The notes under the pieces are model-generated. The model had not been told where the DNA came from. It did not search any database and saw only the letters and a list, made by a program, of their open reading frames with translations. Both the position numbers and the translations under genes were made by a program. 32,000 nucleotides of DNA from Geotalea uraniireducens Rf4 (GTDB lineage: Bacteria > Desulfobacterota > Desulfuromonadia > Geobacterales > Geobacteraceae), in contig NC_009483.1 in assembly GCF_000016745.1 (NCBI RefSeq), positions 690,001-722,000 of the forward strand, written 5' to 3'. This document shows, piece after piece, positions 8,623 through 30,193 of this stretch. Every line of letters starts with the position of its first letter. Position 1 is the first letter of the stretch.

Positions 8623-8630
8623 GTATAATT

Positions 8631-8658
8631 TTTATACCTTTATTGTATGGAATGTCAA
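8631..8658 (-). promoter_or_regulatory. Putative sigma70 promoter for brnTA
   Basis: Minus strand reads TTGACA (8658-8653), a 16-nt spacer, then TATAAA (8636-8631). This sits only a few nt before the brnT ATG at 8622, in an AT-rich 56-bp spacer after recC. Confidence 0.35.
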
Positions 8659-8678
8659 CCTGATCCTCTCCAATCGAT

Positions 8679-13492: not shown

Positions 13493-13804
13493 ATGATCCA
13501 TGCCGACAAGGAAAAATTGAAACGTGAGCTGGTCGCTGCCCTGGCGGTGGACGAAAACGTGGAAAAGATCGTCATCTTCGGATCCTTCACGAGATCCGCC
13601 ACCCCCCATGATATGGATGTAGCCGTATTCTGCGATTCCAAGGACGACTACCTCACGCTGGCCCTGGCGTTACGGAGAAAGCTGCGCAGCCTCTCCAATG
13701 TCATCCCCATCGACCTGCTGCCCGTAACCGTGCCGTATGATCCAGCATCGGTATTTCTTCAGGAAATCAACAAGGGTGAAGTGGTTTATGAAAAAAGACA
13801 CTGA
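13493..13804 (+). CDS. Minimal nucleotidyltransferase (MNT-type antitoxin-like partner of HEPN)
   Basis: 103 aa. NTase signature 'IVIFGSFTRSATPHDMDVAVF' contains the GS motif and DxD. It overlaps the downstream HEPN gene. Confidence 0.8.
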   Translation: MIHADKEKLKRELVAALAVDENVEKIVIFGSFTRSATPHDMDVAVFCDSKDDYLTLALALRRKLRSLSNVIPIDLLPVTVPYDPASVFLQEINKGEVVYEKRH

Positions 13805-14174
13805 ACTATGGCTTCAATACGCCGACGAAAACCTGAAATCGGCAGAGGTCCTTCTGGAGAGCGACCTTTACAACTCTTCCCTGCAAAATGCCCAGCAATC
13901 TGTTGAGAAATACCTCAAGGCCGTGCTCATCGAAAAGGCGGCCGGCCTGACCAGAACCCACAGCATCAGGGAACTTGCAGGACTTCTCGCCGGTCTCGGC
14001 GTTCATCTCTCCATGACCGATGACGATATCGATCTTCTTGATTCAATCTATCTTCCCTCTAAATATCCCGCGTTCAGCGTATTGCCGAGATTCATGCCTG
14101 ATCAAAGCGTCTGCCGGCAATGCCTGGGGATTGCCGAAGAGGTGCGTCTGGATATTTTGAGGGTTATTACCTGA
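13788..14174 (+). CDS. HEPN domain protein (toxin-like partner of MNT)
   Basis: Start chosen at the in-frame ATG at 13788 (MKKDTELWLQYADENLKSAE...), which overlaps the MNT stop. Features include 'SLQNAQQSVEKYLKAVLIEKAAGLTRTHSIRELAGLL' and the 'PSKYP' tail typical of PF05168-type HEPN. Confidence 0.8.
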   Translation: MKKDTELWLQYADENLKSAEVLLESDLYNSSLQNAQQSVEKYLKAVLIEKAAGLTRTHSIRELAGLLAGLGVHLSMTDDDIDLLDSIYLPSKYPAFSVLPRFMPDQSVCRQCLGIAEEVRLDILRVIT

Positions 14175-15408: not shown

Positions 15409-16170
15409 TCAATCCCCGCGTGGCATCTCCCATGAAGCGGTACTGAATGAAAACGATGCATCATCCTTACGTATCCAGATCGCTTCTTTGGCTGATATGG
15501 TAAGCACCCATGTCTGCATTGCGGCATCCGGTTTTTTGGCTGCGAATGCCTGTGGGGTTAAAATGGCGATGCAGCAGTGTTGTTCCGGGTCTCGCACCGA
15601 TTGATAAAGAATTGCGCCGAGGGCAGAGTCCCTCGCAATTCGCCCGAAAGCCTGTGTCGCTGAATAATCGGTCGGATGCCGCCATTTTGACGCATCACAT
15701 TCGAATGGCGGTATGCGTAAATCTACGCAGCTGGTTTTAATCGGCGCCCTGAAAGCCGTAAAGGGGCATGGCTGAAGACGGTCGAGACCTGAAGTGTCCT
15801 GCAGAAAACGCCATCTCCAATAGCCAACTTCGGCGGCGGCTGTGCGGACTGTCTCGGCGGCGTAGAACACACCGGGGTCGGTTACTGCCCGGAATCGTGA
15901 ACCGGAAGGATGGCGAGTTTCATAGCGGAAGGGACTAAAGAGCAGATAGTGCAGGCCGGCAGCCTCTTTCGGTACCGGCGGCTTGCGTTCCTCCAGAATA
16001 TCCTCCAATAGTTCCTGCTCTGCGCGTGTATCCACAAGTTTGGCTGTGGAAACCACATGCTGGGCTTCCACCATGCGCCAAACTTTGCAGGAGAGAGCTC
16101 TTGCCTCAGACGACACCGCGGCAGGCGTCCAGGTAGGTGACGACACGTACGAGCCCCTCCGTGGTTTCAA
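15409..16170 (-). CDS. RES domain toxin (NAD+-targeting family); start codon ambiguous
   Basis: Segments 'VWRMVEAQHVVST.KLVD', 'FSPFRYETRHPSGSRFR' and 'VFYAAETVRTAAAEVGYW' resemble RES-domain proteins paired with DUF2384 antitoxins. The listed start at 16170 is TTG and overlaps the antitoxin by 65 nt. Alternatives are GTG at 16146 and ATG at 16074. Confidence 0.78.
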   Translation of the reverse strand: MKPRRGSYVSSPTWTPAAVSSEARALSCKVWRMVEAQHVVSTAKLVDTRAEQELLEDILEERKPPVPKEAAGLHYLLFSPFRYETRHPSGSRFRAVTDPGVFYAAETVRTAAAEVGYWRWRFLQDTSGLDRLQPCPFTAFRAPIKTSCVDLRIPPFECDASKWRHPTDYSATQAFGRIARDSALGAILYQSVRDPEQHCCIAILTPQAFAAKKPDAAMQTWVLTISAKEAIWIRKDDASFSFSTASWEMPRGD

Positions 16171-16489
16171 TCAGGTCAACCGGCTTTTTACCTGCAAGCG
16201 CTCTGTTTTCGCTGCCAAGCCATTTTTTTGCATCGTCTGACGCTCCACCAACTATGGAGTCGAGAGACCGGAATAATCTGACCAGAAGAACGGCAAAGTC
16301 CCATTCTTTTTTTGCTGGTGAGAGTCTGTAGGTATCAGCATAAAGCCGCGTGACAGTGGCAGCGCTTACGCCGAGAATATGAGCAAGTTTGACCTTGGAC
16401 AAATCGAGATAGGCAGCCGTATTTACAACCGCCTTCGTCAATACCCGGGGCTTGTTCAGTGTCTGTTGTGCCGTTGCAGTGAGTGGCAT
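16106..16489 (-). CDS. Xre/ParS/MbcA-like antitoxin (HTH plus DUF2384-type toxin-binding domain)
   Basis: 127 aa. N-terminal HTH-like 'LSKVKLAHILGVSAATVTRL'. C-terminal 'AKKWLGSENRALAGKKPVDLIETTEGLVRVVTYLDA' is typical of DUF2384. It lies directly upstream of the RES gene. Confidence 0.75.
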   Translation of the reverse strand: MPLTATAQQTLNKPRVLTKAVVNTAAYLDLSKVKLAHILGVSAATVTRLYADTYRLSPAKKEWDFAVLLVRLFRSLDSIVGGASDDAKKWLGSENRALAGKKPVDLIETTEGLVRVVTYLDACRGVV

Positions 16490-16785: not shown

Positions 16786-17127
16786 TCAATCGCAGTGCTT
16801 GGTAGCGTTGGTGGTTATTTTAAGAATACTTTCCTGGATCTCTTTGTTGGGAATTGCCCGGTAGGAGTCGATGAGCAGTTTTTCCGCGACGGCCAGCGGC
16901 AAAGAATCATTAGTGTCAGTAAATAATGATTGAATCGGAATACTAAGCGCTTGTGCCACCTGCTGCAACCGGTCGGTGTTCATCTTGTTCGTGCCGCATT
17001 CATATTTCTGTATCTGCTGAGTACTCACGCCAATCTGCTCCGCGAGACGCTCCTGCGTCCACCCCGCCTGTTGACGAAGCTGACGTAGCCTGTGTCCTAT
17101 TTCCCTGCTGTTGAGTATTGGTCCCAT
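16786..17127 (-). CDS. XRE-family helix-turn-helix transcriptional regulator (controller-like)
   Basis: Start set at ATG 17127 (MGPILNSREIGHRLRQLRQQAGWTQERLAEQIGVSTQQIQKYECGTNKM...). The listed upstream extension to 17202 runs through the promoter palindrome. The gene is divergent from the SNF2 operon. Confidence 0.8.
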   Translation of the reverse strand: MGPILNSREIGHRLRQLRQQAGWTQERLAEQIGVSTQQIQKYECGTNKMNTDRLQQVAQALSIPIQSLFTDTNDSLPLAVAEKLLIDSYRAIPNKEIQESILKITTNATKHCD

Positions 17128-17187
17128 GTCACGCTCCGGTTTTTTATAGATTACAAGTAACCGGAAGCAACAAACACCATCCAAAAG

Positions 17188-17214
17188 TTGATTGATAATC
17201 AACCCTTGATTGAT
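17188..17214. promoter_or_regulatory. Palindromic / direct-repeat candidate operator in the divergent XRE-SNF2 promoter region
   Basis: 'TTGATTgatAATCAA' (17188-17202) is a perfect 6-3-6 palindrome. 'TTGATTGAT' recurs at 17206-17214. Both lie within the 114-bp spacer between divergent start codons. Confidence 0.4.
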
Positions 17215-17241
17215 TTTGAATACTTATGTATAACTCCATAA

Positions 17242-20109
17242 GTGAACACCCCCTACCATGCCAAATACTTTGCCGCAGAACTCTTGCGGCGATCGGCGTC
17301 CAGCGATATCGACAAGCTCTCACTGTCGTTGTTCAACGCTTCCGTTGATCTGAACCCTCACCAGATCGAGGCGGCGTTGTTCGCTTTCCGCTCACCCCTG
17401 TCGAAAGGGGTGCTGCTGGCGGATGAAGTCGGTCTGGGCAAGACCATCGAGGCCGGACTGGTACTCTGCCAGTATTGGGCAGAGCGGCGACGGAAGCTGA
17501 TCGTCATCTGTCCGGCGTCCCTGCGCAAACAGTGGAGCCTGGAGCTTTCAGAGAAGTTCAATCTTCCCTCCGTTATCCTCGAAGCCTGCTCGTTCCGGGA
17601 TGCCGTCAATAGCGGCAATGACAACCCGTTTCGGCAGGATTGTATCATCATCACTTCGCTTAACTTTGCCGCACGCTGCAAGGAACAACTCCGGCTGATT
17701 CCATGGGATCTGGCGGTGATTGACGAGGCACACAAGCTGCGCAACGCCTATCGTCCCAGTAACCGCATGGGGCAGGCCATCAAATGGGGGCTGGCAGAGC
17801 GCAAAAAACTGCTGCTCACCGCTACACCGCTACAGAACTCGCTGCTGGAGCTGTTCGGCCTTTCCACCCTGATTGATGATTATCTATTCGGCGACCTGGC
17901 TTCGTTCCGCGAGCAGTACATCGGTAACGATGCCGACCTTGACAGCCTTAAACGTCGCCTGGCCGGTTTCTGCAAACGGACTTTGCGCAGTCAGGTCCTA
18001 GAATATATCCGCTACACCGAGCGTCGTCCCATCACCCGCCCCTTTCGTCCATCCGATCAGGAACAGGCGCTCTACGAGGCAATCTCCGCCTTCCTGCAAC
18101 GGCCTGATTCCTACGCCATCCCGAACCGACAGCGGACCCTGACCACCCTTGTTATTCGCAAGCTGCTGGCATCATCCACCCAGGCGGTTACCCGGACGCT
18201 GGAAACCATGAAGGCGCGGCTGGAAGCACTGCGGGCGGGGCTTGCCGTTCCTGAGACGGTTGTAGAAGCTTTGGTGGGAGATGACGACTTCGTCGAAGAG
18301 ATAGTTGAGGATGAAGAGGACGTGGTCGACTCCACAGAAGACCAGGAACAGACCGAGTCATCAGATGATCGGTTTGACCTGTGCAGGCTCGATGCCGAAA
18401 TTGCCGAACTGGAAAGTTACATCAGATGGGCAGCTGACATCTCCGTAGACAACAAGACCCATACCCTCGGCACTGCCCTCGACATTGGTTTTGCCGAGAT
18501 GGACAAGATGGGCGCTCCCCGCAAGGCGCTGATTTTCACCGAAAGCCGCCGCACCCAGGAGTACCTGAAAACTTTCCTCGAAGCCAACGGCCATGCCGGG
18601 CGGATCGTGATTTTCAACGGCTCAAACAGCGACGCCGAAAGCAGAGCCATCTATGAACAGTGGCTGGCTGCCAATGTTGACACCGGGCGGATCAGCGGTT
18701 CAAAAAGCGCCGACAGGCGTAATGCCCTCATCGAGCATTTCCGCGACCACGCATCCATTATGATCGCCACTGAGGCTGCCGCCGAGGGGGTTAATCTCCA
18801 GTTCTGCTCCCTGGTGGTCAATTACGATCTTCCCTGGAACCCGCAACGGATCGAACAGCGCATCGGCCGCTGCCACCGCTATGGCCAGCAGCATGATGTA
18901 GTGGTGATCAACTTCCTCAACGAACGCAACGAGGCTGATCAGCGAGTCTATGAGCTGCTGACCGCGAAGTTCAACCTGTTCAGCGGCGTATTCGGCGCTT
19001 CAGACGACGTGCTGGGGAGCATCGAAAGCGGAGTGGATTTCGAGCGCCGCATCCTGTGCATCTATCAGGAATGCCGCACCTCGCAGGAGATAGAAACTGC
19101 CTTTGCCGCCCTGCAGGCCGAGATGGAGCAGTGTATCGCCTCCCGCATGGATGACACCCGCAAGACGCTGCTGGAGCATTTCGATGAGGATGTGCATGCT
19201 CGCCTGAAGGTGCGGCTCGACGAAACACGCCACCAGCTTGACCGCTTCAGCCGTCTGTTCTGGGCCGTCACCCGGTCAGTCCTGGCCGGGCACGCCCATT
19301 TCGACGATGCCGATTTGACTTTTGATCTTCACCAGCCTCCCATACCGTCACCAGCCGGTCGTTATCACCTCATATCCCGCAACCGCGAAAATGTAGAGGG
19401 AGCCTTTCTCTACCGCCTCTCACACCCGCTGGGAGAGTTCGTCGTCAACCGCGCCATGGATGAGCCTACACCGGAAGCGGAGCTGCGCTTCGACATCAGC
19501 GCCCATCCAGCAAAGATATCCGTGGTGGAGGCATTGAAGGGCAAAACCGGCATCCTCACCTTGGAACGGCTCACCATCAGCTCCTTCGACACCGAAGAGC
19601 ACGTGCTGTTCAGTGCCGTGACCGATGACGGCCGGACGCTCGACCAGGAACAGTGCGAGAAAATCTTCCACTGTTGTGCCGATGTGCTGCCATCCCCATC
19701 AATTGGCAGGTCAGAGCGCCTTGACAGGGAGGCAGAGCGCCATAGCGCCGCCGCAATCAGCCGGTCACTGGACGCCAACAACCGGCATTTTCAGCACGAG
19801 CGCGAACGCCTGGAGTCATGGGCCGACGACTTGATCGTGGCCGCAGAGAGAGAGCTGAAGGAGACCAAGGCCAGGATTAAGCTGTTAAACCGCCAGTCAC
19901 GCCAGGCCGCCAGCACAGCGGAACAGTTGGAGTGGCAGAAGCAGATCGCAGAGCAGGAGAAGAAACAACGTCGTCAGCGGCAGCGGATGTTCGATGTTGA
20001 GGATGAAATCATCGAGAAGCGGGATGCACTGATTGACCGGCTGGAGCAGCAGATGGCCCAGAAAGCCGAACGAGAGCGGCTGTTCACCATCCGGTGGGCG
20101 GTGGTGTGA
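17242..20109 (+). CDS. SNF2-family (SWI2/SNF2) DEAH helicase / translocase with an uncharacterised C-terminal domain and a terminal coiled coil
   Basis: 955 aa. GTG start lies immediately after an in-frame TAA. Motif I 'DEVGLGKTIEAG' (aa 61-72), motif II 'VIDEAHKLRN' (aa 159-168), 'LLLTATPLQN', motif VI 'QRIGRCHRYGQ'. There is an acidic insert 'VGDDDFVEEIVEDEEDVVDSTEDQEQTESSDD'. The last ~110 aa are charged heptad-like (KETKARIKLLNRQSRQAAS...QEKKQRRQRQRMFD...). Confidence 0.88.
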   Translation: MNTPYHAKYFAAELLRRSASSDIDKLSLSLFNASVDLNPHQIEAALFAFRSPLSKGVLLADEVGLGKTIEAGLVLCQYWAERRRKLIVICPASLRKQWSLELSEKFNLPSVILEACSFRDAVNSGNDNPFRQDCIIITSLNFAARCKEQLRLIPWDLAVIDEAHKLRNAYRPSNRMGQAIKWGLAERKKLLLTATPLQNSLLELFGLSTLIDDYLFGDLASFREQYIGNDADLDSLKRRLAGFCKRTLRSQVLEYIRYTERRPITRPFRPSDQEQALYEAISAFLQRPDSYAIPNRQRTLTTLVIRKLLASSTQAVTRTLETMKARLEALRAGLAVPETVVEALVGDDDFVEEIVEDEEDVVDSTEDQEQTESSDDRFDLCRLDAEIAELESYIRWAADISVDNKTHTLGTALDIGFAEMDKMGAPRKALIFTESRRTQEYLKTFLEANGHAGRIVIFNGSNSDAESRAIYEQWLAANVDTGRISGSKSADRRNALIEHFRDHASIMIATEAAAEGVNLQFCSLVVNYDLPWNPQRIEQRIGRCHRYGQQHDVVVINFLNERNEADQRVYELLTAKFNLFSGVFGASDDVLGSIESGVDFERRILCIYQECRTSQEIETAFAALQAEMEQCIASRMDDTRKTLLEHFDEDVHARLKVRLDETRHQLDRFSRLFWAVTRSVLAGHAHFDDADLTFDLHQPPIPSPAGRYHLISRNRENVEGAFLYRLSHPLGEFVVNRAMDEPTPEAELRFDISAHPAKISVVEALKGKTGILTLERLTISSFDTEEHVLFSAVTDDGRTLDQEQCEKIFHCCADVLPSPSIGRSERLDREAERHSAAAISRSLDANNRHFQHERERLESWADDLIVAAERELKETKARIKLLNRQSRQAASTAEQLEWQKQIAEQEKKQRRQRQRMFDVEDEIIEKRDALIDRLEQQMAQKAERERLFTIRWAVV

Positions 20110-20237
20110 TTTTACCGTAGGGGCACTCCCGCGTGGGTGCTCGCCTTTCGTCGGCAATGGTGACCACGGCGAATGCGGCAAGAAGGGCGACCATATGGAA
20201 TCGCCCCTGCAAAGACAAAACAGAAACGAGAGAGACT

Positions 20238-23200
20238 ATGAGCAAATATGACGACCTTGTACGCAAGCTGAAAGAAATATTCCAGATTGACCGGCCCGAG
20301 CTGGATTTCGGCGTTTACCGCATTCTCAATGCCCGTGCCGGCGAGATCAACGACTATCTGGACAACCGACTGAAGGCCAGGGTACAGGAAGCACTGGCAC
20401 ATTCCGGTAATGCCAATCAGGAGCAACTGCGCAAGGAACTTGCCGAAGCTGAAAAAAACGCCGAATCACTTGGCATGAAGGCCGACGATGTCCCCAAGGT
20501 ACAGGTGTTGCGCCAGCGGCTTGCAGAGCTTGCCGGCGGTGCTGCTGACCACGAAAACGCGGTCTATTCTCATCTGCTGACGTTCTTCTCCCGCTACTAC
20601 GACAGTGGCGACTTCATCAGCCAGCGCCGTTACAAGGGGGACACCTATGCCATCCCCTATGCCGGTGAAGAGGTGGTGCTGCACTGGGCCAACAAGGATC
20701 AGTACTATACCAAGAGTGGCGAGAACTTCGCCAACTACAGCTTTAAGCTGGATGATGGCCGCACGGTGCATTTTCGCCTGGTGGCTGCCGACACCGCTAA
20801 GGACAACCGCAAGGATAATGACAAGGAACGCCGCTTTGTCTTGATTGAGCAACAGACCCGCGTCGTGACCGATGATGATGGTGATGAATACGAAGAGGAA
20901 TTGCTGCCGGTCGAAGAAGCGAACGGCGTGCTGTTGCTCCGCTTTGAGTACAAGCCAATGCCGAAAGGGAGCAAACAGGATGACCTGATGACCAAAGCGG
21001 TGCAGAACGTTCTGTCCCATGATGCAGTAAAAAGCAGATGGCTTGATCTTGCCAGACGTGAGCCGACCGATAAGAACCCTCAACGCACCTTGCTGGAAAA
21101 GCACCTGACCACCTACACCCAGAAGAACACCGCCGACTATTTCATCCACAAGGATCTGGGCCGCTTCCTGCGGGGTGAGCTGGATTTCTACATCAAGAAC
21201 GAGGTGATGAATCTGGATGATGTGCAGAACACCGAGCGCTTTGCTGACATCGAGAAGAACCTGCGAATGATTCAGTGTCTGCGGGCCATTGCCCTGGATC
21301 TGATTACTTTCCTGGCCCAGCTGGAGGATTTCCAGAAGAAGCTCTGGTTGAAGAAGAAATTTGTGGTTGCGGCACATTACTGCATTACGTTGGACAGGAT
21401 CATTAAAGACGCACCTGAACTGCTGGCGGTTATTGTGGCCAATGAAAAGCAGTGGGAGCAGTGGGACAAATTGGGGATGTTGGAGGGGAAGAACGTTGAC
21501 CTGTTCAAGCAGGCCAAGTCTGGAACCGTGGGCTACCTGCGCGAGCATCCGTTTTTGATGGTTGATACTGCCTTATTCGGTAGCGAGTTCAAGGACAAGC
21601 TGCTGGCGGAGATTGATAATCTGGATGAATCGTTGGATGGCCTACTGATTCATGGGGATAACGTCCAGGCCTTGAACCTGCTACAGGAGCAGTATCGGGA
21701 ACAGGTGAAGTGTGTTTACACCGATCCACCATACAACACAAAAACACGCGATTTTCTTTACAAGGATTCGTACAAGCACTCGAGCTGGGCTTCAATGATG
21801 TTTGACCGGATTTCGGCTTGTCATGGGTTTCTTACCAACGAGGGGTTGATCTGCCACTATATTGATGAAAATGAACATACCATTGCCAGCCTTGTTCTAA
21901 ACGAAGTATTTGGTACTGATAATCGTTGTGGTGATGTTGTATGGAAAAATTCCAGTAAAAATGATCAGGACTATGTGTCTATGCAACATGAATATTTGTT
22001 GCTGGCTGTGAAAGGTAAGGCATTTAACAAGGGTGAATGGAATGAGAGAAAAGAAGGGTTAGAAGAAATATATGCTGCATTTAATGGTTTTCGTAAAAAG
22101 CATGAAACTGACTGGAAAGCTATCCATTCTGAAGCCTTGAAGTGGTATCGACAATTTCCAGAATCAAACCCTATTACTGATAGCAAGCATTATTCCTGGA
22201 TGGATGAGCGAGGCGTTTACTTTCCTGCTGATATATCAGGCCCAAATTATGGCCAGTACAGGTACGATGTACTTCATCCTGTTACCGGAAAAACATGTAA
22301 AGAGCCGGCGAGTGGCTGGCGATTTCCAGAAGAAACTATGAAGAAAAGAATTGTCGATGGATTAGTTCACTTTGGTGATGATGAGGCAACGATTCCTAAC
22401 AACAAAACATATCTTAAAGACACAGAAACACAGAGTCTTACGAGTATCAAGTATCGAGATGGCCGTGTGGCTAGCAAGTTGCTTGCGGCAATGTTTGGCG
22501 GTAAAACTTTCTCGAATCCCAAAGATGTTGACATTTCAATGCGTTTACTTCGTGCGTTTCAAACACAAAACGAGTGGGTTCTTGATTTTTTTGCTGGTAC
22601 GGGGACAGCCGGTCATGCGGTTCTTGCGTTAAATCGAGAAGATAAAACTCGTAGAAAATACATACTCGTCGAACAGGGCGAATACTTTGACACTGTTCTC
22701 AAACCCCGCATTCAGAAAGTCGTCTACTCCGCCGACTGGAAGGACGGTAAGGCAACAGCACCCGACTCCGGCATCTCACACGCCTTCAAAGTCCTCAAGA
22801 TCGAAAGCTACGAAGACACCCTCAATAACCTGGAACTGCGCCGTACTGACACCCAGCAAAGCCTGTTGAACAGCCTGCCGGATAGTGCAAAGTGCGACTA
22901 TCTGCTCCGCTACATGCTCGACATCGAAAGCCAGGGTTCCATCCTGTCGGTGGATTCCTTCCGCAAACCGTTCGACTGCAAACTGAAGGTGGCGGTTGAT
23001 TCAGCCGGGGCATTCGAGGAGCGGACTATTGACTTGGTGGAGACCTTCAACTACCTGATCGGCTTACGGGTCAAGTCCATCGATTCTCTGCGGGAGCGAG
23101 GGATAGTGATGGTGCAGGGGACATTGCCGACCGGCGAGAAGACGCTGGTGCTTTGGCGCGACTGCGAACAGGTGGACTACGAGGCGCTCAACCGCTTCTG

Positions 23201-23378
23201 CGACCGCCACGCCATCAACCCCAAGGATAGCGAGTTTGAAGTGGTCTACATCAACGGCGACCACAACATTCCGGCGGTGCTGACCACCACCGAAGATGAA
23301 GGCGGCATCACCAAAACTCTGAAGCTGCGCCAAATTGAACCGGAGTTCCTCAGCCGCATGTTCGGCGGGGAGGTTTAG
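20238..23378 (+). CDS. Beta-class (Mod-like, N6_N4_Mtase-type) N6-adenine DNA methyltransferase with a ~460-aa N-terminal and a ~215-aa C-terminal extension
   Basis: Start set at ATG 20238 (MSKYDDLVRKLKEIFQ..., 'gagagag' upstream). The listed GTG at 20133 adds a non-protein-like leader. Motif IV 'TDPPYN' is at 21723-21734 (aa ~496). Motif I 'DFFAGTGT' is at 22584-22607 (aa 783-790). The order IV then I is the Type III Mod arrangement. Confidence 0.88.
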   Translation: MSKYDDLVRKLKEIFQIDRPELDFGVYRILNARAGEINDYLDNRLKARVQEALAHSGNANQEQLRKELAEAEKNAESLGMKADDVPKVQVLRQRLAELAGGAADHENAVYSHLLTFFSRYYDSGDFISQRRYKGDTYAIPYAGEEVVLHWANKDQYYTKSGENFANYSFKLDDGRTVHFRLVAADTAKDNRKDNDKERRFVLIEQQTRVVTDDDGDEYEEELLPVEEANGVLLLRFEYKPMPKGSKQDDLMTKAVQNVLSHDAVKSRWLDLARREPTDKNPQRTLLEKHLTTYTQKNTADYFIHKDLGRFLRGELDFYIKNEVMNLDDVQNTERFADIEKNLRMIQCLRAIALDLITFLAQLEDFQKKLWLKKKFVVAAHYCITLDRIIKDAPELLAVIVANEKQWEQWDKLGMLEGKNVDLFKQAKSGTVGYLREHPFLMVDTALFGSEFKDKLLAEIDNLDESLDGLLIHGDNVQALNLLQEQYREQVKCVYTDPPYNTKTRDFLYKDSYKHSSWASMMFDRISACHGFLTNEGLICHYIDENEHTIASLVLNEVFGTDNRCGDVVWKNSSKNDQDYVSMQHEYLLLAVKGKAFNKGEWNERKEGLEEIYAAFNGFRKKHETDWKAIHSEALKWYRQFPESNPITDSKHYSWMDERGVYFPADISGPNYGQYRYDVLHPVTGKTCKEPASGWRFPEETMKKRIVDGLVHFGDDEATIPNNKTYLKDTETQSLTSIKYRDGRVASKLLAAMFGGKTFSNPKDVDISMRLLRAFQTQNEWVLDFFAGTGTAGHAVLALNREDKTRRKYILVEQGEYFDTVLKPRIQKVVYSADWKDGKATAPDSGISHAFKVLKIESYEDTLNNLELRRTDTQQSLLNSLPDSAKCDYLLRYMLDIESQGSILSVDSFRKPFDCKLKVAVDSAGAFEERTIDLVETFNYLIGLRVKSIDSLRERGIVMVQGTLPTGEKTLVLWRDCEQVDYEALNRFCDRHAINPKDSEFEVVYINGDHNIPAVLTTTEDEGGITKTLKLRQIEPEFLSRMFGGEV

Positions 23379-23382
23379 GCCA

Positions 23383-26300
23383 ATGGCGAGCTTTCACAAA
23401 GAACTGGTGCTCAATCGCTGGATGTATGGCTTCTTCTGTGGCGGAAGCCTGCAGGCGCTTAAAGCCCGTCTTGGCGATGACCGGCATGAGGGAATCGAGG
23501 ATGATGGCCAGACTCGCTTCTTCCACGAACTGTCACGCAATCTGTTCGAGGTTGATCGTATCAGCGCTGATGATCTGCGCCGATATGACCTGAACATCGT
23601 CAATCATTGGCAGCAGATTACCCGCAAGCGGAATCGGCTGGAAGAGACCGAGATGCAGATGAAGTATTTTCAGTATCTGTCGCTCTTGTTTACCGAGATC
23701 TATCTGGATTGGTATTTTAACCGGCGTCAGGAGTTGCTGGATGGCCTGAATGAAGAGATTACCGAGTACAACGCCAAGACAGCGATAGCTGAAAGGTTCC
23801 AGCCATTTGATGCGGACGAACTGAACAAACTTGCCTTCTGGAACGCCACTGGTTCCGGGAAAACCCTGCTCCTGCATATCAATATCCTGCAATACCTACA
23901 ATACTTCCAGCGGGGCAATCAGAATCTTTACCCCGACAAGATCATCCTGCTGACGCCGAACGAAGGGTTGTCCCGTCAGCATCTGGCCGAATTGGACCTG
24001 TCAGGTTTCCATTTCTTCCAGTTCTTCGACAAGAACAAGAACGCCTTCCGTGGCACGGTTGAGATCATCGACATCAACAAGCTGGGTGATGAGATGGGTG
24101 ACAAGACGGTTGCGGTTGAGGCGTTCGAGGGGGATAACCTGGTTCTGGTGGACGAGGGGCACCGGGGAACCGGCACGGCCGCCGGGGCATGGATGAGCCG
24201 CCGCGAAACCCTCTGCCGGGGAGGCTTTGCCTTTGAATATTCGGCCACCTTCGGCCAGGCGGTGGCCCGTGGTTGGGTTGTTACCAAATCGGAAGAGGAG
24301 GCGCTGAAAAAGAAGGCCAAAATTCTGTTCGAGACAACCGCGCTTAAGAAATTGACCGATGAGCAGCGCTGTCAGATTGCCCTGAACAGCGAGGAAAAAC
24401 GAAAAGCCCGCCTGCTGGCAACACGGGAAATCTATGCCAAGTGCATCCTTTTCGACTATTCGTACAAGTTTTTCTACGAGGACGGCTATGGCAAGGAATC
24501 GCTGATCCTCAACCTGGCCGAAGACAATGACGATGAGATACGGCATATCTATTTTACCGCCTGCCTGTTGAGCTTTTACCAGCAGCAATATCTGTGGGAA
24601 CGTCACCGGGAACAGTTGGCCGAGTTCAACATCGAAAAGCCGCTCTGGGTCTTCGTTGGTAACAAGGTTAATGATGATGACTCGGACATCCTGACGGTGG
24701 TTCAGTTTCTGGCCGATTTCCTCAACAACGATGCCCATTACAAGGCATGGATTTCCGACCTGCTGGAAGGCAAGGCACGACTGCTGGACAAGAAGGGGCG
24801 CGACATTTTTGAGCGCCGTTTTACACCGCTGATGGGGCTTTCGTCAGAGATGGTCTACGCGGATATTTTGAAGCGGCTCTTTAATAGTGAATCCCGACAA
24901 CGGCTGAAGCTGGTCAACCTCAAGGGAAGCAAAGGAGAACTGTCCCTGCGTGTGGGAGAGAACGATCCGTTCGGGTTGATCAACATCGGTGATGATGCCG
25001 CTTTTTTCAAACTCTGCGACGATGCGACCGGATTCGATAACGAGGGTGACGAGTTTGGCACTTCGTTATTCGGCACGTTAAACGACAAAGAGAGCCACCT
25101 GCATATCCTTATCGGATCGCGCAAGTTCACCGAGGGGTGGAGCAGTTGGCGGGTATCAACGATGGGACTGCTCAATATGGGACAGGGCGAAGGCTCCCAG
25201 ATCATCCAGCTCTTCGGTCGTGGGGTTCGACTCAAGGGCAAGGAGTATTCGCTGAAACGGAGTACACTGGGGCAACGGCCAAAGGGGCTTCATCTCGACA
25301 AACTGGAAACACTCAATATCTTTGGTGTTCGCGCAAGCTATATGGCGCAGTTCAAACAGTATCTGCAAGAGGAGGGTGTCACCACCAGTGACGAAATAAT
25401 CGAGCTGAATTTTGAGACACGACTATCCCCACATTTTCCCAAGGACAAGTTGAAGTCACTCGCCTTGAAGGATGGCTATAAGGACAACCAGAGAAACGGC
25501 TTCAAGCGAAAACAATTTCCTTGGCTGTATGATATTCCGGCTGAGTTTGCCGGGAAGATCAGGACGCCCCACATTGAGCTGGACCTGTATCCCCGGTTGG
25601 AAGCCTTGAGCAGCCAGGATAAGGGGGTAGGGACACCGGTAATCACCGTCAGGCAGACCGGCAAAATTGCCTCGGCAACCATGGCGCTATTCGATTTCGA
25701 CCGGATATACATGGGACTGCAAGAATACAAACTGCAACGAAGCTGGAGCAACCTGCGGCTGGACCGGCAGAGGTTGGAAGCATTCTGCATAGAATCAAAC
25801 GGTTGGTACACCCTGCACATCCCCGCTTCGGATCTGGCAATCAAGACCATTGCCGACATTCGCAAACAGGAAGATATCCTCATCCGTCTACTGCAGGATT
25901 ACACCGACCGCTTCTACAAATCTCTGAAAAACGCCTATGAAGGACAGTTCTATGAGGTTGTGAGTGTGCGTGGCGATGACGACACCATGCTCAAGGTGTA
26001 TCACTTTGAAATAGAAGATTCTGATGATGGTCAGGAATACAAAAAACGTCTGGAAGAACTGCAAAAGCTGGTTGTTTCCGGTCAGCTGGGGGAATCCAGC
26101 AAGTGGAATGCAAACCAGATGGTAGCGATCTGTTTTGACCGGCATCTGTACTATCCTCTGATCTCAATTGAGGGAAATGTGCCGCTCAAAATGCGCCCGC
26201 TGGCCTTTGACGCCCCCAGCGAGATTGAGTTCGTGAAAGATCTGGAGGCTTTTTACACATCACCCGCAGGCAAAGCGGCTATCGGCAACCGCAGCCTCTA

Positions 26301-26673
26301 TCTGCTTCGCAATGCCGACTCCAAGGCCAAGGGGCTGGGCTTTGCCATGGCTGGCAATTTCTATCCCGACTTTCTGCTCTGGCTGGTGGATGACACCACC
26401 GGTCAGCAATGGCTGAGCTTCATCGATCCGAAGGGAATTCGCCAGATTAATTTGACTGATCCAAAGTTCGGGCTGTATCAGGAAGTCAAAGTGCTGCAAA
26501 CCAAGCTGGCCGATCCAAACCTGGTGCTTAATGCCTTCATACTCTCAAAGACGAAGTTTACGGACATTCTTAACAAGAACTGCACCGAGCAGGAGTTGGA
26601 AGAGCGGCATGTGCTGTTTATGGAGCATGGCGGGCAGGCGTATCTGACGCAGATGTTTAGAAAAATGGTGTGA
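23383..26673 (+). CDS. Type III Res-like SF2 helicase / ATPase fused to a C-terminal PD-(D/E)xK-like nuclease module
   Basis: Start set at ATG 23383, 4 nt after the MTase stop, with SD 'ggggagg' at 23367-23373. Walker A 'NATGSGKTLL', DEAH-like 'LVLVDEGHRG', 'SATF', motifs V/VI 'SRKFTEGWS...' and 'QLFGRGVRLKG'. C-terminal segment: 'SEIEFVKDLE...NFYPDFLLWLVDD...LSFIDPKG'. Confidence 0.8.
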   Translation: MASFHKELVLNRWMYGFFCGGSLQALKARLGDDRHEGIEDDGQTRFFHELSRNLFEVDRISADDLRRYDLNIVNHWQQITRKRNRLEETEMQMKYFQYLSLLFTEIYLDWYFNRRQELLDGLNEEITEYNAKTAIAERFQPFDADELNKLAFWNATGSGKTLLLHINILQYLQYFQRGNQNLYPDKIILLTPNEGLSRQHLAELDLSGFHFFQFFDKNKNAFRGTVEIIDINKLGDEMGDKTVAVEAFEGDNLVLVDEGHRGTGTAAGAWMSRRETLCRGGFAFEYSATFGQAVARGWVVTKSEEEALKKKAKILFETTALKKLTDEQRCQIALNSEEKRKARLLATREIYAKCILFDYSYKFFYEDGYGKESLILNLAEDNDDEIRHIYFTACLLSFYQQQYLWERHREQLAEFNIEKPLWVFVGNKVNDDDSDILTVVQFLADFLNNDAHYKAWISDLLEGKARLLDKKGRDIFERRFTPLMGLSSEMVYADILKRLFNSESRQRLKLVNLKGSKGELSLRVGENDPFGLINIGDDAAFFKLCDDATGFDNEGDEFGTSLFGTLNDKESHLHILIGSRKFTEGWSSWRVSTMGLLNMGQGEGSQIIQLFGRGVRLKGKEYSLKRSTLGQRPKGLHLDKLETLNIFGVRASYMAQFKQYLQEEGVTTSDEIIELNFETRLSPHFPKDKLKSLALKDGYKDNQRNGFKRKQFPWLYDIPAEFAGKIRTPHIELDLYPRLEALSSQDKGVGTPVITVRQTGKIASATMALFDFDRIYMGLQEYKLQRSWSNLRLDRQRLEAFCIESNGWYTLHIPASDLAIKTIADIRKQEDILIRLLQDYTDRFYKSLKNAYEGQFYEVVSVRGDDDTMLKVYHFEIEDSDDGQEYKKRLEELQKLVVSGQLGESSKWNANQMVAICFDRHLYYPLISIEGNVPLKMRPLAFDAPSEIEFVKDLEAFYTSPAGKAAIGNRSLYLLRNADSKAKGLGFAMAGNFYPDFLLWLVDDTTGQQWLSFIDPKGIRQINLTDPKFGLYQEVKVLQTKLADPNLVLNAFILSKTKFTDILNKNCTEQELEERHVLFMEHGGQAYLTQMFRKMV

Positions 26674-26799: not shown

Positions 26800-27225
26800 T
26801 CATTCCTTGAACGGATTTACTATGCGCAAGGTCTTTTCAACGATCAGGCCATTATGCATGTCTTCCGTGTAGAGCAGCTTCGCTTCCGCGTGCAGCGCAG
26901 CTGAGACGATAAGGCTGTCCCAGTACGAAAAATTATAGTCGCCTCTCAGGGTCGAAGCGTGAAGGAGTACATCTCTGCTGAATTCGACGACCTCGTACCG
27001 ATTGTAGAACGAAGCAATAATCCCGCAAATATCCTCTTCCTGCAACTCGGTTTTCTTGAGGAGATTGACACACAATTCATTGATAACCTGGGAACTGGTG
27101 GCGATCTTGTGTCCTTCTATCAGGCGCTTTGCCGTGCCGGTCTTGTGGTGGTCATCCGACTGGATGAAGGCGTAAAGCCAGATATTGGTGTCGATGAAGC
27201 ATTTTCTATCGGGCATATATCTCAT
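26800..27225 (-). CDS. vapC: PIN-domain toxin VapC
   Basis: 141 aa. 'CFIDTNIWLYAF' holds the first acidic residue, followed by '...INELCVNL...' and 'WDSLIVSAAL'. It overlaps the upstream small antitoxin gene. An alternative start is M4 at 27216. Confidence 0.85.
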   Translation of the reverse strand: MRYMPDRKCFIDTNIWLYAFIQSDDHHKTGTAKRLIEGHKIATSSQVINELCVNLLKKTELQEEDICGIIASFYNRYEVVEFSRDVLLHASTLRGDYNFSYWDSLIVSAALHAEAKLLYTEDMHNGLIVEKTLRIVNPFKE

Positions 27226-27436
27226 CCCTTTTCAGAGGATGAAACCCTTTTATCTCCAAGGGAGAGGCAAGAAGCCTCTCAATCATGTCAGGCCCCGCCT
27301 TTTTTCCGGCTTCGTGCGCGGTCGCATCTTCTTTCAGAATGATGACCTTGACGGTGTCGGTGATGGAGTCCTTGAATTTTTTAGGGAGCTCGATAATACC
27401 GTTTTTAACTTTTGCTCTGAATTCTACGGCGTACAT
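27206..27436 (-). CDS. vapB: VapB-type antitoxin (small, AbrB/SpoVT-like N-terminus)
   Basis: 76 aa. 'AKVKNGIIELPKKFKDSITDTVKVIILKED' resembles a swapped-hairpin antitoxin N-domain. Strong SD 'gaggagg' precedes the ATG. It is directly upstream of and overlapping vapC. Confidence 0.6.
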   Translation of the reverse strand: MYAVEFRAKVKNGIIELPKKFKDSITDTVKVIILKEDATAHEAGKKAGPDMIERLLASPLEIKGFHPLKRDEIYAR

Positions 27437-27604: not shown

Positions 27605-27668
27605 GGAAACCATTGGTGCCAGGCTTGGGGAAACCATTGGTGCCAGGAAACCATTGGTGCCAGGCTTG
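27605..27668. repeat. Triple direct tandem repeat (17-nt core AAACCATTGGTGCCAGG)
   Basis: Exact core copies at 27607-27623, 27631-27647 and 27648-27664. Copies 1 and 3 are both followed by 'cttg'. Copies 2 and 3 abut directly. The array is intergenic, about 170-230 bp upstream of vapB. Confidence 0.85.
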
Positions 27669-28654: not shown

Positions 28655-30193
28655 ATGCACAAGATTCCTTACAATCAGAAGCCCGTTGGGTACGGAGAAT
28701 TGATTCGGCGCCTTTCCCTGAACATTCTGCCCCATTACGTGACATCGTTTGTCACTGATGGAAAGGGAAGACGCCATACGGTTATAGATCGGCACATACG
28801 AAAAGAAGTATATCCTCTCCCCTATTACCCGGGTGAAAGCCTGGGCGATCATCTTACGTTCGCGCTCAAATATGAAGGAGTCAACCTGGAGATACTTGCC
28901 GCGGTTTTTCAGACCGTATCACCCCACGAAATCGAGGCCATCGTCCGAGAGACCCCGACCGGCAAATATGCCCGTCAGATCTGGTTTCTTTACGAATTCC
29001 TCACGGGAAAAGAGCTGGACTTGGAACCGGTCAAGGTAGCCAATTACATCGACATATTGGACGAGGATCAGTACGTCACGGCCCGGAAAGAGCCGGTGCC
29101 CCGACAAAGAATCAACAACAATCTGCTTGGTGAACGCCGTTTTTGCCCCATGGTCCGCAGAACGGATGAGCTCAAAAGATACCAGGAGATCGATTTTCAT
29201 GCGCGCACGAAGGAAGTGGTCGGCAGGTACCCGAAAGAAATCCTGCAGCGGGCCGTTACCTATCTTTTCACGAAAGAAACCAAGTCGTCATTCGAGATTG
29301 AGCGGGCCACCCCTGACCAGAAACGGGCGGCACGTTTCGTGGAACTGCTGAGACATGCAGAGGAAATGGACTTCTTTACCAAAGAGAGCCTGATAGAGCT
29401 TCAAAAGGCGGTGGTCGATGCGAGGTTCGCAAACGACGACTTCCGGAAGAATCAGAACTATATCGGAGAATCGTTGGGTTTTGGCCGGGAAAACGTTCAC
29501 TTCGTCACCCCACGGCCGGATGACCTTCCTGATCTGATGGACGGAATGTTCGTCTGCCATGAAAAGATGATGATCTCGGGGGTACATCCGGTCATAGCAG
29601 CGACTATCGTCGCCTTCGGCTTTGTCTTTATGCATCCTTTTGAAGACGGCAACGGGAGGATCCATCGGTTTCTGATCCACAACATCCTGGCGAAGAGAGG
29701 ATTTACGCCGCAGGGGATGATCTTCCCCGTTTCGGCTACCCTTGTCCAAAACATGATAAATTACGACCAGGCACTTGAGCTCTTCTCAAAACCTCTCCTT
29801 CCCCTGATCGACTACGACATGGACGAATCGGGCCAGATGCGGGTGAAGAACGATACCGCCATTCATTATCGGTACATCGACATGACGGCAATAGCGGAAA
29901 GAATGTTCGGTTTCATAGAAAAGACTGTCGAAAAGGAACTGGTTTCCGAGTTGGACCTCCTGGTCAATTATGAAAGGGCCAAGTCAACCATGCGGGAGGT
30001 AGTCGACATGCCTGACAGGATGATTGATCTGTTCATACGGATATGCCGTGAGAACGGGGGGAGGATTTCCCTGAACAAACGAAAGTCCCTGTTCGACAAG
30101 CTAACCGATGAAGAGGTTGCTGCACTGGAGGAATGTGTCAGCCAGGCATTCGGGCTGAATTCCAACGGTTCTTCGGCCGACCGGAATAATTAG
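28655..30193 (+). CDS. Fic/DOC family protein (putative AMPylase or other NMP/phosphocholine transferase)
   Basis: 512 aa. Canonical Fic motif HxFx(D/E)GNGRxxR as 'HPFEDGNGRIHR' at 29633-29668. An upstream inhibitory-helix-like 'SFEIER' is at about 29288-29305. SD 'gaggtg' precedes the ATG. Confidence 0.9.
   Translation: MHKIPYNQKPVGYGELIRRLSLNILPHYVTSFVTDGKGRRHTVIDRHIRKEVYPLPYYPGESLGDHLTFALKYEGVNLEILAAVFQTVSPHEIEAIVRETPTGKYARQIWFLYEFLTGKELDLEPVKVANYIDILDEDQYVTARKEPVPRQRINNNLLGERRFCPMVRRTDELKRYQEIDFHARTKEVVGRYPKEILQRAVTYLFTKETKSSFEIERATPDQKRAARFVELLRHAEEMDFFTKESLIELQKAVVDARFANDDFRKNQNYIGESLGFGRENVHFVTPRPDDLPDLMDGMFVCHEKMMISGVHPVIAATIVAFGFVFMHPFEDGNGRIHRFLIHNILAKRGFTPQGMIFPVSATLVQNMINYDQALELFSKPLLPLIDYDMDESGQMRVKNDTAIHYRYIDMTAIAERMFGFIEKTVEKELVSELDLLVNYERAKSTMREVVDMPDRMIDLFIRICRENGGRISLNKRKSLFDKLTDEEVAALEECVSQAFGLNSNGSSADRNN

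Follow-up and report, generated by a model that had tools for sequence, protein, structure and literature searches.

The locus considered here raises the question of whether a SNF2-family ATPase, a DNA methyltransferase and a helicase-nuclease encoded side by side on the chromosome of Geotalea uraniireducens form one system, and which kind of system this would be. Within the window (the whole stretch of 32,000 nucleotides that was analysed, to which all positions refer) four intact genes were identified, i.e., a divergent XRE gene and those encoding the SNF2 protein, Mod and a Res-like protein. The initial annotation had described them as an XRE-controlled, Type III-like defence candidate fitting no canonical architecture, and what it said on the genes, their motifs, the operon layout and the surrounding island was borne out, with every quoted motif present. 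The features are:

16786-17127, minus strand: XRE/Cro-C1-type HTH regulator, 113 aa from ATG (Pfam HTH_3)
17188-17223, no strand: two tandem 18-nt repeats, TTGATTGATAATCAACCC and TTGATTGATTTTGAATAC, palindromic core TTGATT-N3-AATCAA (repeat search)
17242-20109, plus strand: SNF2-family ATPase of RapA/DrmD type, 955 aa, GTG start (Pfam, PADLOC DrmD)
17431-17445, plus strand: SNF2 motif GLGKT (aa 64)
17722-17733, plus strand: SNF2 motif DEAH (aa 161)
18856-18888, plus strand: SNF2 motif QRIGRCHRYGQ (aa 539)
19081-20106, plus strand: SNF2 C-terminal module, aa 614-955 (long helix, alpha+beta domain, coiled-coil hairpin, terminal strand)
aa 685-816 of the SNF2 protein, plus strand: alpha+beta domain (AlphaFold model)
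19714-20052, plus strand: SNF2 antiparallel helical (coiled-coil) hairpin, aa 825-937 (AlphaFold model)
20238-23378, plus strand: Mod, beta-class N6-adenine (N6/N4) methyltransferase, 1046 aa (Pfam, PADLOC MTase_III)
20238-21677, plus strand: conserved N-terminal extension of Mod, aa 1-480 (no Pfam family)
21723-21734, plus strand: Mod motif IV DPPY (aa 496)
21798-22517, plus strand: hypervariable target-recognition segment of Mod, aa 521-760 (conservation profile)
22590-22604, plus strand: Mod motif I FAGTG (aa 785)
22725-23375, plus strand: conserved C-terminal extension of Mod, aa 830-1046 (no Pfam family)
23367-23373, plus strand: Shine-Dalgarno sequence GGGGAGG for res, within the mod 3' end (direct sequence reading)
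23383-26673, plus strand: Res-like SF2 helicase-nuclease, 1096 aa (Pfam ResIII, PADLOC REase_III)
23851-23865, plus strand: Res helicase motif GSGKT (aa 157)
24151-24162, plus strand: Res helicase motif DEGH (aa 257)
25207-25230, plus strand: Res helicase motif QLFGRGVR (aa 609)
26215-26670, plus strand: Res C-terminal PD-(D/E)xK nuclease module, aa 945-1096 (E947, D996, D1015, K1017)

Three intact open reading frames of ~1000 codons are far beyond chance, as follows from their full motif sets and from thousands of full-length homologues. The mod stop codon (TAG, 23376-23378) is separated by four bases from the res ATG at 23383, which suggests that Mod and Res are translationally coupled. The module is neighboured by MNT/HEPN, RES/Xre, PIN and Fic genes and thus resides within an island rich in toxin-antitoxin genes, whose G+C content is 41-58% from 13 to 30 kb as compared to 62-65% in the flanking recBCD region.

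The SNF2 protein, whose N-terminus (VNTPYHAKYF) agrees with the homologue consensus MxTPYHAKYF, possesses a helicase core at ~aa 30-600, identified by Pfam SNF2-rel_dom and Helicase_C, and its Walker A, DEAH and arginine residues were found to be invariant in 72 sequences. RapA was its top match both by sequence in the PDB and by Foldseek, the PADLOC DrmD model PDLC02619 was matched with E=9e-197 over model positions 26-651 of 872 only, and the NCBIfam model DrmD_b with 660.8 bits, i.e., under its cutoff of 950. The C-terminus (~aa 600-955), previously noted as unassigned and ending in a coiled coil, indeed matched no Pfam family, and the AlphaFold (AF2) model (pLDDT 69.5, C-terminus confident) contains the corresponding hairpin. 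Neither a nuclease motif nor a recognisable effector domain was seen in the SNF2 protein.

Mod matched Pfam N6_N4_Mtase (E=5e-27) and, over model positions 1-1057 of 1057, PADLOC MTase_III PDLC03646 (E=0), and its residues 503-815 were found to be homologous to EcoP15I Mod (4zcf_A, E=5e-59). In 72 sequences D-P-P of motif IV and G787 of motif I were invariant, the fourth residue of motif IV being Y or F. Among 58 homologues, identity amounted to 73% in aa 121-160 and 281-320 as opposed to 8-27% in the hypervariable segment. For Res, the Pfam ResIII match (E=1.3e-6) was limited to aa 150-281, whereas PADLOC REase_III PDLC03654, the sole REase_III model of PADLOC to match, was aligned with E=0 over 22-1128 of its 1154 positions. 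No sequence relative of Res was obtained from the PDB, profile search included, so that similarity to EcoP15I Res, the sole solved Type III Res structure, is undetectable. Among the same number of sequences (72), Res residues K160, D257, E258, R613, R616, E947 and D996 were invariant and positions 1015/1017 were D/K or E/H, the nuclease-type residues here being P995-D996 followed by D1015-P-K1017. The AF2 model of Res is poor overall (pLDDT 45) and not usable as a whole; within it the C-terminus has the order helix-strand-strand-strand-helix-strand, with the motif residues in canonical places, and large N-terminal, inter-lobe and pre-nuclease regions are without an assigned domain. The claim that the locus fits no canonical architecture was hence overstated, as Mod and Res match Type III families over their whole length and the Mod core shares clear homology with EcoP15I Mod; annotation tools would consequently label these two genes as Type III R-M.

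Whether the trio is conserved as a unit in unrelated genomes was answered positively from both ends. A SNF2-seeded search (one genome per species) yielded 348 relatives, of which the best 80 loci, covering ~20 phyla, were analysed: Mod was found downstream of SNF2 on the same strand in 79/79 loci with downstream DNA, and Res in all 56 loci (56/56) having more than 1.2 kb after Mod. The SNF2-to-mod gap was at most 150 nt in 51/79 loci, and genes were inserted between both in 27/79. In a Res-seeded metagenome search SNF2 was located on the same strand in 44 of ~50 informative loci (~88%), upstream of res in 38 and downstream in 6, and it was missing from 5-6. The SNF2 gene is therefore a constant partner of Mod/Res and no chance neighbour. 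About 10% of close Mod/Res pairs are without a SNF2 gene (L116, L134, L135, L136, L141, L118), meaning that the pair may work alone and that SNF2 may be dispensable or independent. Co-variation of Res with the non-variable part of Mod was strong (r=0.94), while that of SNF2 with Mod and Res was looser (r ~0.54). In E. coli and Klebsiella the trio was also identified on IncF plasmids, and further copies lie on IMG/VR viral contigs. SNF2 proteins of this family (43-49% identical over the full length) are also linked to a second, shorter Type III pair (PDLC03636 + PDLC03648). Divergent long Mod/Res pairs bear other helicases: in Priestia a UvrD-PD-(D/E)xK helicase-nuclease, in Hymenobacter one that is RecD-like. 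Unrelated cargo genes, including defence-type genes, reside between trio members in ~1/3 to 1/2 of homologous operons, and for Hma operons insertions between components were likewise reported (PMC11232893). In the literature, neither a paper naming the SNF2-Mod-Res trio nor an experiment on any of its members was found.

The XRE gene, whose mechanical ORF reaches a TTG at 17202, encodes a protein with a Pfam HTH_3 match (E=4.6e-13) and weak PADLOC 'Control_protein' matches (E=1.2e-7). Homologues occupy the same position in 7/80 loci, all of them Geobacter-like (L003, L004, L007, L046, L057; weakly L005/L006), and in other lineages the trio is accompanied by unrelated HTH genes or by none. The XRE gene is thus lineage-specific and outside the conserved core, and XRE control does not hold as a family trait; in this genome the protein is a candidate C-protein-like controller of the operon. 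The tandem repeats lie within the 114-nt XRE-SNF2 intergenic region, and as the exact palindrome showed no conservation in related Geobacter-like loci, they are proposed as a putative operator only.

Comparison with known systems by sequence places the trio closest to Type III R-M (EcoP15I/EcoP1I). Shared are the position of mod upstream of res, a beta-class Mod with the order motif IV, recognition segment, motif I, and a Res with SF2 motifs toward the N-terminus and the PD-(D/E)xK module at the C-terminus, both proteins being full-length members of PADLOC Type III-labelled families. In contrast to Type III R-M, a near-constant third gene is present, Mod is ~400-500 aa longer owing to its extensions without assigned fold, and Res resembles a single REase_III model. 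Membership of the trio in DISARM, ARMADA, BREX and Hma was tested, in each case with a negative outcome. Class 1 DISARM (DrmD, DrmMI, DrmA, DrmB, DrmC) likewise pairs a DrmD-like SNF2 protein with an adenine methyltransferase, together with another helicase, in a defence island; however, DrmA, DrmB (DUF1998) and DrmC (PLD) are missing from the trio, its methylase is of the PF01555 rather than the PF13659 DrmMI type, and the C-terminal third of its SNF2 protein differs. ARMADA I/II resembles the trio in its RapA-like SNF2 protein, adenine methyltransferase and large SF2 helicase with C-terminal PD-(D/E)xK-superfamily nuclease (10.1101/2025.09.15.676423; PMC13463889), but its helicase belongs to the YprA family and carries OB, CON and DUF1998 domains plus a Vsr-type nuclease, and its methylase is PglX-like. 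The helicase of the trio is instead ResIII-like and lacks DUF1998, and its methylase is of the Type III Mod kind. Hma/BREX-related (BR) systems and BREX type 3 also have an R-M-like operon in which a RapA-like SNF2 helicase and a DNA methyltransferase occur together, often with defence genes inserted (PMC8565338, PMC11232893, PMC12839542). The earlier suggestion of Hma was nevertheless wrong, as Hma consists of a SNF2-NOV_C nuclease (HmaA), a DUF1156 methylase and a DUF499 ATPase (PMC8565338, PMC11232893), all missing here. BREX requires PglZ and BrxC, and the reported absence of DrmA/B/C, PglZ, BrxC and BrxL was confirmed for the window by PADLOC scans.

Considering these data, the locus probably encodes a three-component methylation-guarded restriction system with a Type III-like Mod/Res core and a dedicated SNF2 DNA motor. 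Its R-M character is suggested by the homology to EcoP15I Mod, the hypervariable segment, the tight Mod-Res co-variation and the 4-nt gap, and the defence context by the low-G+C island and the cargo genes. The loose co-variation of SNF2, its switched position in six loci and the inserted genes weaken this reading and speak for two independent systems, i.e., a two-gene Type III R-M and, co-travelling with it in islands, an SNF2 gene with a defence or maintenance role of its own; the pairs without SNF2 and the plain Type III labels also point that way. Such independence is considered quite improbable, given the exceptionless SNF2-side linkage among the best 80 relatives, the Res-side linkage, the constant strand and mostly short gap, the second Type III pair of unrelated size with the same SNF2 family and the lack of a recognisable effector in the SNF2 protein itself.

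Ranking ahead of it, though unlikely as well, is a DISARM/ARMADA/BREX-like mode, whereby methylation marks self and the SNF2 and Res-like helicases load on unmethylated or incoming DNA, degrade it processively or block its replication, instead of cutting after head-to-head collision between two sites as Type III enzymes do. This mode agrees with DrmD models being closest to the SNF2 core, the undetectable relatedness to EcoP15I Res, the other processive helicases of Priestia and Hymenobacter, the parallel architecture of ARMADA type I (10.1101/2025.09.15.676423) and the large conserved extensions of unassigned function in all three proteins; however, Mod core, gene order, coupling and target-recognition variability are typical of Type III, and the hallmark DISARM, ARMADA and BREX components (PglZ, BrxC, DrmA/B/C, PglX-type methylase, YprA/DUF1998 helicase) are missing. 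A non-defence role, e.g., epigenetic gene regulation or DNA repair by an orphan-like methylase and remodelling helicases, appears very improbable: the SNF2 core has its nearest solved relative in a transcription factor, RapA, but the invariant Res ATPase and nuclease motifs (save for the D/K or E/H alternation), the hypervariable Mod specificity, the patchy horizontal spread over phyla, plasmids and viral contigs and the defence-type surroundings and cargo argue otherwise. Type III Mod proteins can also serve as phase-variable regulators, which would suit such a role.

For the three-component system we infer methylation, cleavage and protection. Mod would read a short DNA sequence via its hypervariable segment and presumably methylate adenine at N6 via DPPY and FAGTG, thereby marking host DNA as self. 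Res would bind Mod, most likely as in EcoP15I Mod2Res, and, going by its motifs and the established Type III mechanism, ATP hydrolysis (GSGKT, DEGH, QxxGRGxR) at unmethylated sites would drive long-range communication along DNA, followed by cleavage by the C-terminal module. In this genome the divergent XRE repressor probably times expression, like controller proteins of other R-M systems. The SNF2 protein, a predicted RapA/DrmD-type double-strand DNA translocase without own nuclease, may serve as accessory motor on target DNA, which is the most tentative of the steps assigned to the three proteins. This role would parallel that of SNF2 partners in class 1 DISARM, ARMADA, BREX type 3 and ietHAS: ARMADA defence requires the SNF2 component ArmA (bioRxiv 10.1101/2025.09.15.676423; mBio 2026, PMC13463889), an essential partner in ARMADA II (10.1101/2025.09.22.677730), ietH is essential in ietHAS (PMC13069673), and in Serratia class 1 DISARM joint deletion of drmD and drmMI almost removed protection against one phage (10.1101/2021.12.28.474362). 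About half of the ~3100 residues of the three proteins fall in no described domain, so that unanticipated activities are possible. By stripping or pushing DNA-bound proteins, or by driving or recruiting Mod-Res, the SNF2 motor could render the restriction of invading DNA efficient.

The four genes described in the initial annotation, namely those of an XRE regulator, an SNF2 ATPase, a methyltransferase (Mod) and a Res-like protein, were all identified as intact and in the described layout when the open reading frames of the window were read, and each of the quoted motifs was located at its assigned place:

16786-17127, minus strand: XRE regulator, 113 aa, Pfam HTH_3
17242-20109, plus strand: SNF2 ATPase, 955 aa, GTG start, Pfam SNF2-rel_dom and Helicase_C
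20238-23378, plus strand: Mod, 1046 aa, Pfam N6_N4_Mtase
23383-26673, plus strand: Res-like protein, 1096 aa, Pfam ResIII (weak, E=1.3e-6)

The end of mod is separated from the res ATG by 4 nt and a GGGGAGG Shine-Dalgarno sequence is found within mod. No promoter-like site was seen in the spacer between the SNF2 gene and mod, the RNA structure of which does not exceed that of shuffled controls (z=-0.8). A palindrome in the spacer between the XRE and SNF2 genes, a candidate operator, is not kept in related Geobacter-like loci. Control by XRE, as proposed initially, does not hold as a trait of the family, the XRE gene being limited to seven Geobacter-like loci. Overall, the first observation of the module was confirmed, whereas its interpretation stands in part only.

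As a major outcome, the SNF2 gene was identified to be a partner of the Mod/Res pair and not a mere neighbour. A scan seeded with the SNF2 protein and carried out with one genome per species revealed 348 relatives, of which the best 80 loci (58-76% identity over the full length) were analysed. These span about 20 phyla, including Desulfobacterota, Verrucomicrobiota, Planctomycetota, Bacillota, Chloroflexota, Nitrospirota, Acidobacteriota, the Chlorobium/Ignavibacteria group, Actinomycetota, Synergistota, Deinococcota, Spirochaetota and others. A full-length Mod homologue comes next on the same strand in 79/79 of the loci with downstream DNA, and a Res homologue is present in all of those with more than 1.2 kb past Mod (56/56). 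A scan of metagenome contigs, with a divergent Res alignment serving as query, identified the SNF2 gene upstream in 38 loci and just downstream of res in 6; it is absent from 5 loci with both flanks present and from 1 with the upstream flank alone, while 30 loci were too short to judge. With 44 loci possessing and 5-6 lacking the SNF2 gene, linkage from the Res side thus amounts to about 88%. The Res loci without SNF2 are flanked by unrelated genes (Crp, an M78 peptidase, a poly(A) polymerase and a Gabija-like pair). Conservation of the SNF2 gene with Mod/Res as a unit, a check proposed in the initial annotation, is hence borne out from both sides, and in this linkage the trio differs from Type III restriction-modification (R-M), which consists of two subunits alone. 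Pairwise identities of Mod (non-variable part) and Res correlate closely (r=0.94) as compared to those of SNF2 with either of them (r=0.54), from which Mod and Res were taken to form a tight complex, joined by a looser motor that is exchanged now and then. In one locus (L001) identity is 76% for SNF2 and 42% for Res, in another (L046) 62% and 93%, respectively.

Characterization of the Mod sequence revealed the beta-class order of motifs that defines Type III, with DPPY at residue 496 ahead of FAGTG at 785 and a Pfam match to PF01555. The PADLOC model MTase_III PDLC03646 is covered from position 1 to 1057 of 1057 (E=0), and over aa 503-815, where the catalytic region lies, homology to EcoP15I Mod is clear (4zcf_A, E=5e-59). 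The catalytic residues D-P-P-(Y/F) and the motif I glycine G787 are invariant among 72 sequences. Between the two catalytic motifs, aa 521-760 are hypervariable (8-27% identity), and judged from its position this block is the expected place of the Type III recognition domain. Parts of the N-terminal extension reach 73% identity and are the best conserved of the whole protein.

The Res protein matches the PADLOC model REase_III PDLC03654 (positions 22-1128 of 1154, E=0), with zero matches to the other PADLOC REase_III models or to any NCBIfam model. Likewise, no PDB chain, the Res chain of 4zcf included, was matched by phmmer or with a profile built from 18 divergent homologues. As a consequence, the Type III label of Res stands on how its motifs are arranged and on the name given to the family in the database. 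Its helicase motifs GSGKT, DEGH and QxxGRGxR are invariant, and E947, D996 and (D/E)1015-P-(K/H)1017 are conserved. Among 72 sequences K160, D257, E258, R613, R616, E947 and D996 are invariant and residues 1015/1017 are D/K or E/H. At the latter positions (window 26425-26433) E-P-H replaces D-P-K in 6/18 divergent homologues of the Res alignment (A3) and in 4/72 of the larger set; with each position counted separately, the D-to-E and K-to-H counts are equal. The AlphaFold2 model (pLDDT 45) was built on 45 homologues of 71-100% identity, an alignment too shallow to yield a model fit for fold comparison. Within this poor model the last 150 residues are predicted to follow the helix-strand-strand-strand-helix-strand order of a PD-(D/E)xK core, in which E947, D996 and D1015-x-K1017 would take, with moderate confidence, the canonical places of the nuclease core. 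Taken from motifs and, with moderate confidence, from the model, Res is predicted to join an ATPase of the SF2 helicase type to a PD-(D/E)xK endonuclease at its C-terminus, as is characteristic of Type III.

The SNF2 protein is closest to the DrmD models of PADLOC (E=9e-197), whereby the helicase core alone is aligned, and its nearest solved relative is RapA. K67, T68, D161, E162, H164 and the motif VI arginines are invariant among 72 sequences. In its model (pLDDT 69.5) the C-terminus is predicted with confidence: a long helix leads into an alpha+beta domain, which is followed by a coiled-coil hairpin and, at the end, by a strand. Foldseek matches were confined to the SNF2 core (RapA, ISWI and others), the C-terminal module being without matches, and no nuclease signature was seen in the model or in conservation over 72 sequences. 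For the unassigned segments of all three proteins, Pfam and PADLOC scans returned the trio's own PADLOC models and no other family. Altogether, about 1500 strongly conserved residues of the trio locate outside any described domain.

The identity of the trio was further considered against the named defence systems. Class 1 DISARM requires DrmA (helicase), DrmB (DUF1998) and DrmC (PLD), none of which was found among the scanned window ORFs; their absence, as assumed at the outset, was thus confirmed for the larger ORFs by PADLOC and Pfam. The large upstream genes, considered as DrmA/B, were ruled out, as they are recD, recB and recC. Also the trio's SNF2 protein does not reach the curated NCBIfam thresholds for DrmD: it scores 660.8 bits against DISARM_DrmD_b (cutoff 950 bits; model positions 23-652 of 868) and 272 against DISARM_DrmD (cutoff 610). 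BREX depends on PglZ, BrxC and a PglX methylase, and the initial statement that its markers are absent agrees with the scanned window ORFs, where PADLOC and Pfam gave no match. ARMADA depends on a YprA-family helicase (DUF1998/MZB) and a PglX-like methylase, and the trio is without both: Res matches ResIII/DEAD alone in Pfam and no YprA-, DruE- or DrmAB-type model in PADLOC, and the methylase belongs to PF01555. Hma, which had been suggested initially, is composed of the SNF2 protein HmaA with a NOV_C/DUF3883 nuclease, the DUF1156 methylase HmaB and the DUF499 ATPase HmaC (PMC8565338, PMC11232893). The HmaA model does match the trio's SNF2 protein via the shared helicase core, but with E=6e-58 as compared to 9e-197 for DrmD. 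No Hma model is among the best 25 of the 33 PADLOC matches of Mod, and Res matches REase_III alone. The suggestion was dropped, as neither DUF1156 nor DUF499 was found and Pfam assigns PF01555 to Mod and ResIII/DEAD to Res. The same absence separates the trio from the BREX-related (BR) systems, which like Hma need DUF1156 and DUF499 proteins. Papers on ARMADA, BR/Hma, DndFGH and 'component modularity' were compared and excluded as descriptions of the trio. No paper naming an SNF2, Type III Mod and Res trio was found in the searchable literature, beyond which one may exist. The initial view that the locus fits no canonical architecture therefore needs dividing: its Type III-like core is known and already recognised by tools, whereas the near-constant SNF2 partner is new, as is its sharing and exchange among Type III lineages.

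This sharing was identified among IMG/VR contigs, where full-length SNF2 relatives (43-49% identity, C-terminal module included) adjoin a shorter Type III pair, consisting of a Mod of 530-580 aa (PDLC03636) and a Res of about 900 aa (PDLC03648). The short pair is clear in 14 of these loci and partial in 7 more, and the long pair, i.e., the trio's own Mod/Res family, is found in 16. The SNF2 partnership is hence not confined to the long Mod/Res family. In five loci (L213-L216, L226; e.g., L215:7929-15317) an SNF2 protein with another C-terminus precedes the short pair; in L213 and L215, the two measured, it comprises 875-881 aa and is thereby as long as the DrmD_b models, and the ORF lists of both hold no further large gene downstream. 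The DISARM label of the DrmD_b model family may misdescribe its usual context. Divergent long Mod/Res pairs on plasmids (33-39% identity) possess an upstream gene other than SNF2. Loci with the short pair and loci with divergent long pairs include:

L178, L183, L187, L193, L197, L199, L200, L217, L220, L222, L224, L229 and L230 (IMG/VR contigs): SNF2 with short pair
L083:3057-12192 (Priestia plasmid): upstream UvrD-PD-(D/E)xK helicase-nuclease
L082:181-12270 (Hymenobacter plasmid): upstream 1210-aa RecD-like helicase and 433-aa protein of unknown family
Halobacterium (haloarchaeal plasmids L084/L085): upstream AAA/DUF4143 ATPase
Natronosalvus (haloarchaeal plasmids L084/L085): two upstream proteins of unknown family

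With SNF2 beside two types of pair and other helicases beside divergent pairs, the placing of a DNA motor beside a Type III-like pair was concluded to be a recurrent and exchangeable arrangement.

The trio is also a hotspot for other defence-type genes. Inserts of more than 400 nt reside between the SNF2 gene and mod in 27/79 loci and between mod and res in 28/56 (examples: L062:3322-5562, L027:3869-5134, L036:3347-4821, L032:17950-19722 and L116:8598-9617). Their content differs by locus and, as identified by eye from sequence (RhuM by Pfam), comprises proteins with the Fic motif HPFxDGNGR, DUF262/GmrSD-like proteins, RelE/HigB-like and HTH-HExxH pairs, ATPase pairs, an AIPR-like protein and RhuM. 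The same habit of carrying defence genes between components was described for Hma (PMC11232893). In E. coli and Klebsiella the trio is borne by conjugative IncF plasmids, with IS elements on its flanks and with a different, co-oriented HTH gene, the whole trio being kept in 2/5426 complete E. coli genomes. On the E. coli plasmid pEC316_2 (NZ_CP018955.1) the HTH, SNF2, mod and res genes occupy 29496-39248. The trio is a real, intact and widely transferred three-gene unit. A 298-bp res fragment (8324-8621 of the plasmid-borne copy L081:3566-13318) recurs on E. coli plasmids at >99% identity (matches H28-H33 and about 155 more), carries the annotation 'DUF1158 domain-containing protein' and resembles what would remain of a system after its deletion.

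Within the window, the module resides in a low-G+C surrounding with toxin-antitoxin-type genes, in accordance with the island context claimed initially. The recD, recB and recC genes upstream (2.8-12 kb) have 62-65% G+C, and the 13-30 kb stretch has 41-58%, with genes of the MNT/HEPN, RES/Xre, PIN and Fic types:

13493-14174, plus strand: nucleotidyltransferase/HEPN pair, toxin-antitoxin-type, flanking the module
15409-16489, minus strand: RES-domain toxin and Xre/MbcA-type antitoxin, flanking the module
26800-27436, minus strand: PIN-domain protein and overlapping 76-aa upstream ORF, toxin-antitoxin-type, flanking the module
28655-30193, plus strand: Fic-domain protein, 512 aa, matching the PADLOC candidate family PDC-S24 over nearly its full length (E=8.5e-183)

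The Fic gene is another candidate defence gene of the island. In the non-coding stretch from the PIN pair to the Fic gene, 17 nt are repeated perfectly in tandem (GGAAACCATTGGTGCCA, 2.1 copies, 27629-27664). Between recB and recC, two ORFs of 138 and 103 aa lie on the opposite strand (8035-8722, plus strand) without Pfam or PADLOC match; at 52% G+C, the 8-9 kb stretch stands out from the surrounding operon (about 63-65%) and may be a small insertion. No tRNA gene was found and no integrase was recognised in the window.

As to the mechanism, Mod and Res would probably carry out methylation-guarded restriction, with the SNF2 protein assisting as a double-strand DNA translocase, and of the steps in this proposal the one assigned to the translocase has the least support. 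A wider reading, which taken as a whole is considered rather unlikely, is that RapA/DrmD-type SNF2 translocases serve as a general, exchangeable 'motor module' that would make methylation-based systems a distinct restriction class, being hosted by at least two Type III Mod/Res lineages here and by DISARM, ARMADA, BREX-3, Hma and ietAS elsewhere. The long Mod/Res would then represent a new R-M type with an accessory helicase that is obligatory and differs by lineage (SNF2, UvrD-nuclease or RecD-like), and the long conserved extensions of Mod and Res would dock the motor. EcoP15I-type enzymes hemimethylate an asymmetric site and their ATP-dependent cleavage needs two inversely oriented unmethylated sites; under the same unlikely reading the cleavage rule would differ from this two-site collision, e.g., a single-site trigger followed by processive destruction or protein stripping.

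Type III R-M has been treated as a two-subunit system, and annotation tools would count the present locus as such and ignore its SNF2 gene. What was found is a large and horizontally mobile 'Type III' set with a near-obligatory SNF2 motor, represented by thousands of homologues in about 20 phyla, on clinical IncF plasmids and on viral contigs. With such a motor in many 'Type III' systems, part of the surveyed Type III R-M has an unrecognised third component. The trio also ties classical R-M to the group of DISARM, ARMADA, BREX-3 and Hma, and it provides a compact three-gene model with recognisable nuclease and methylase, of which one intact copy is available on the E. coli plasmid pEC316_2.
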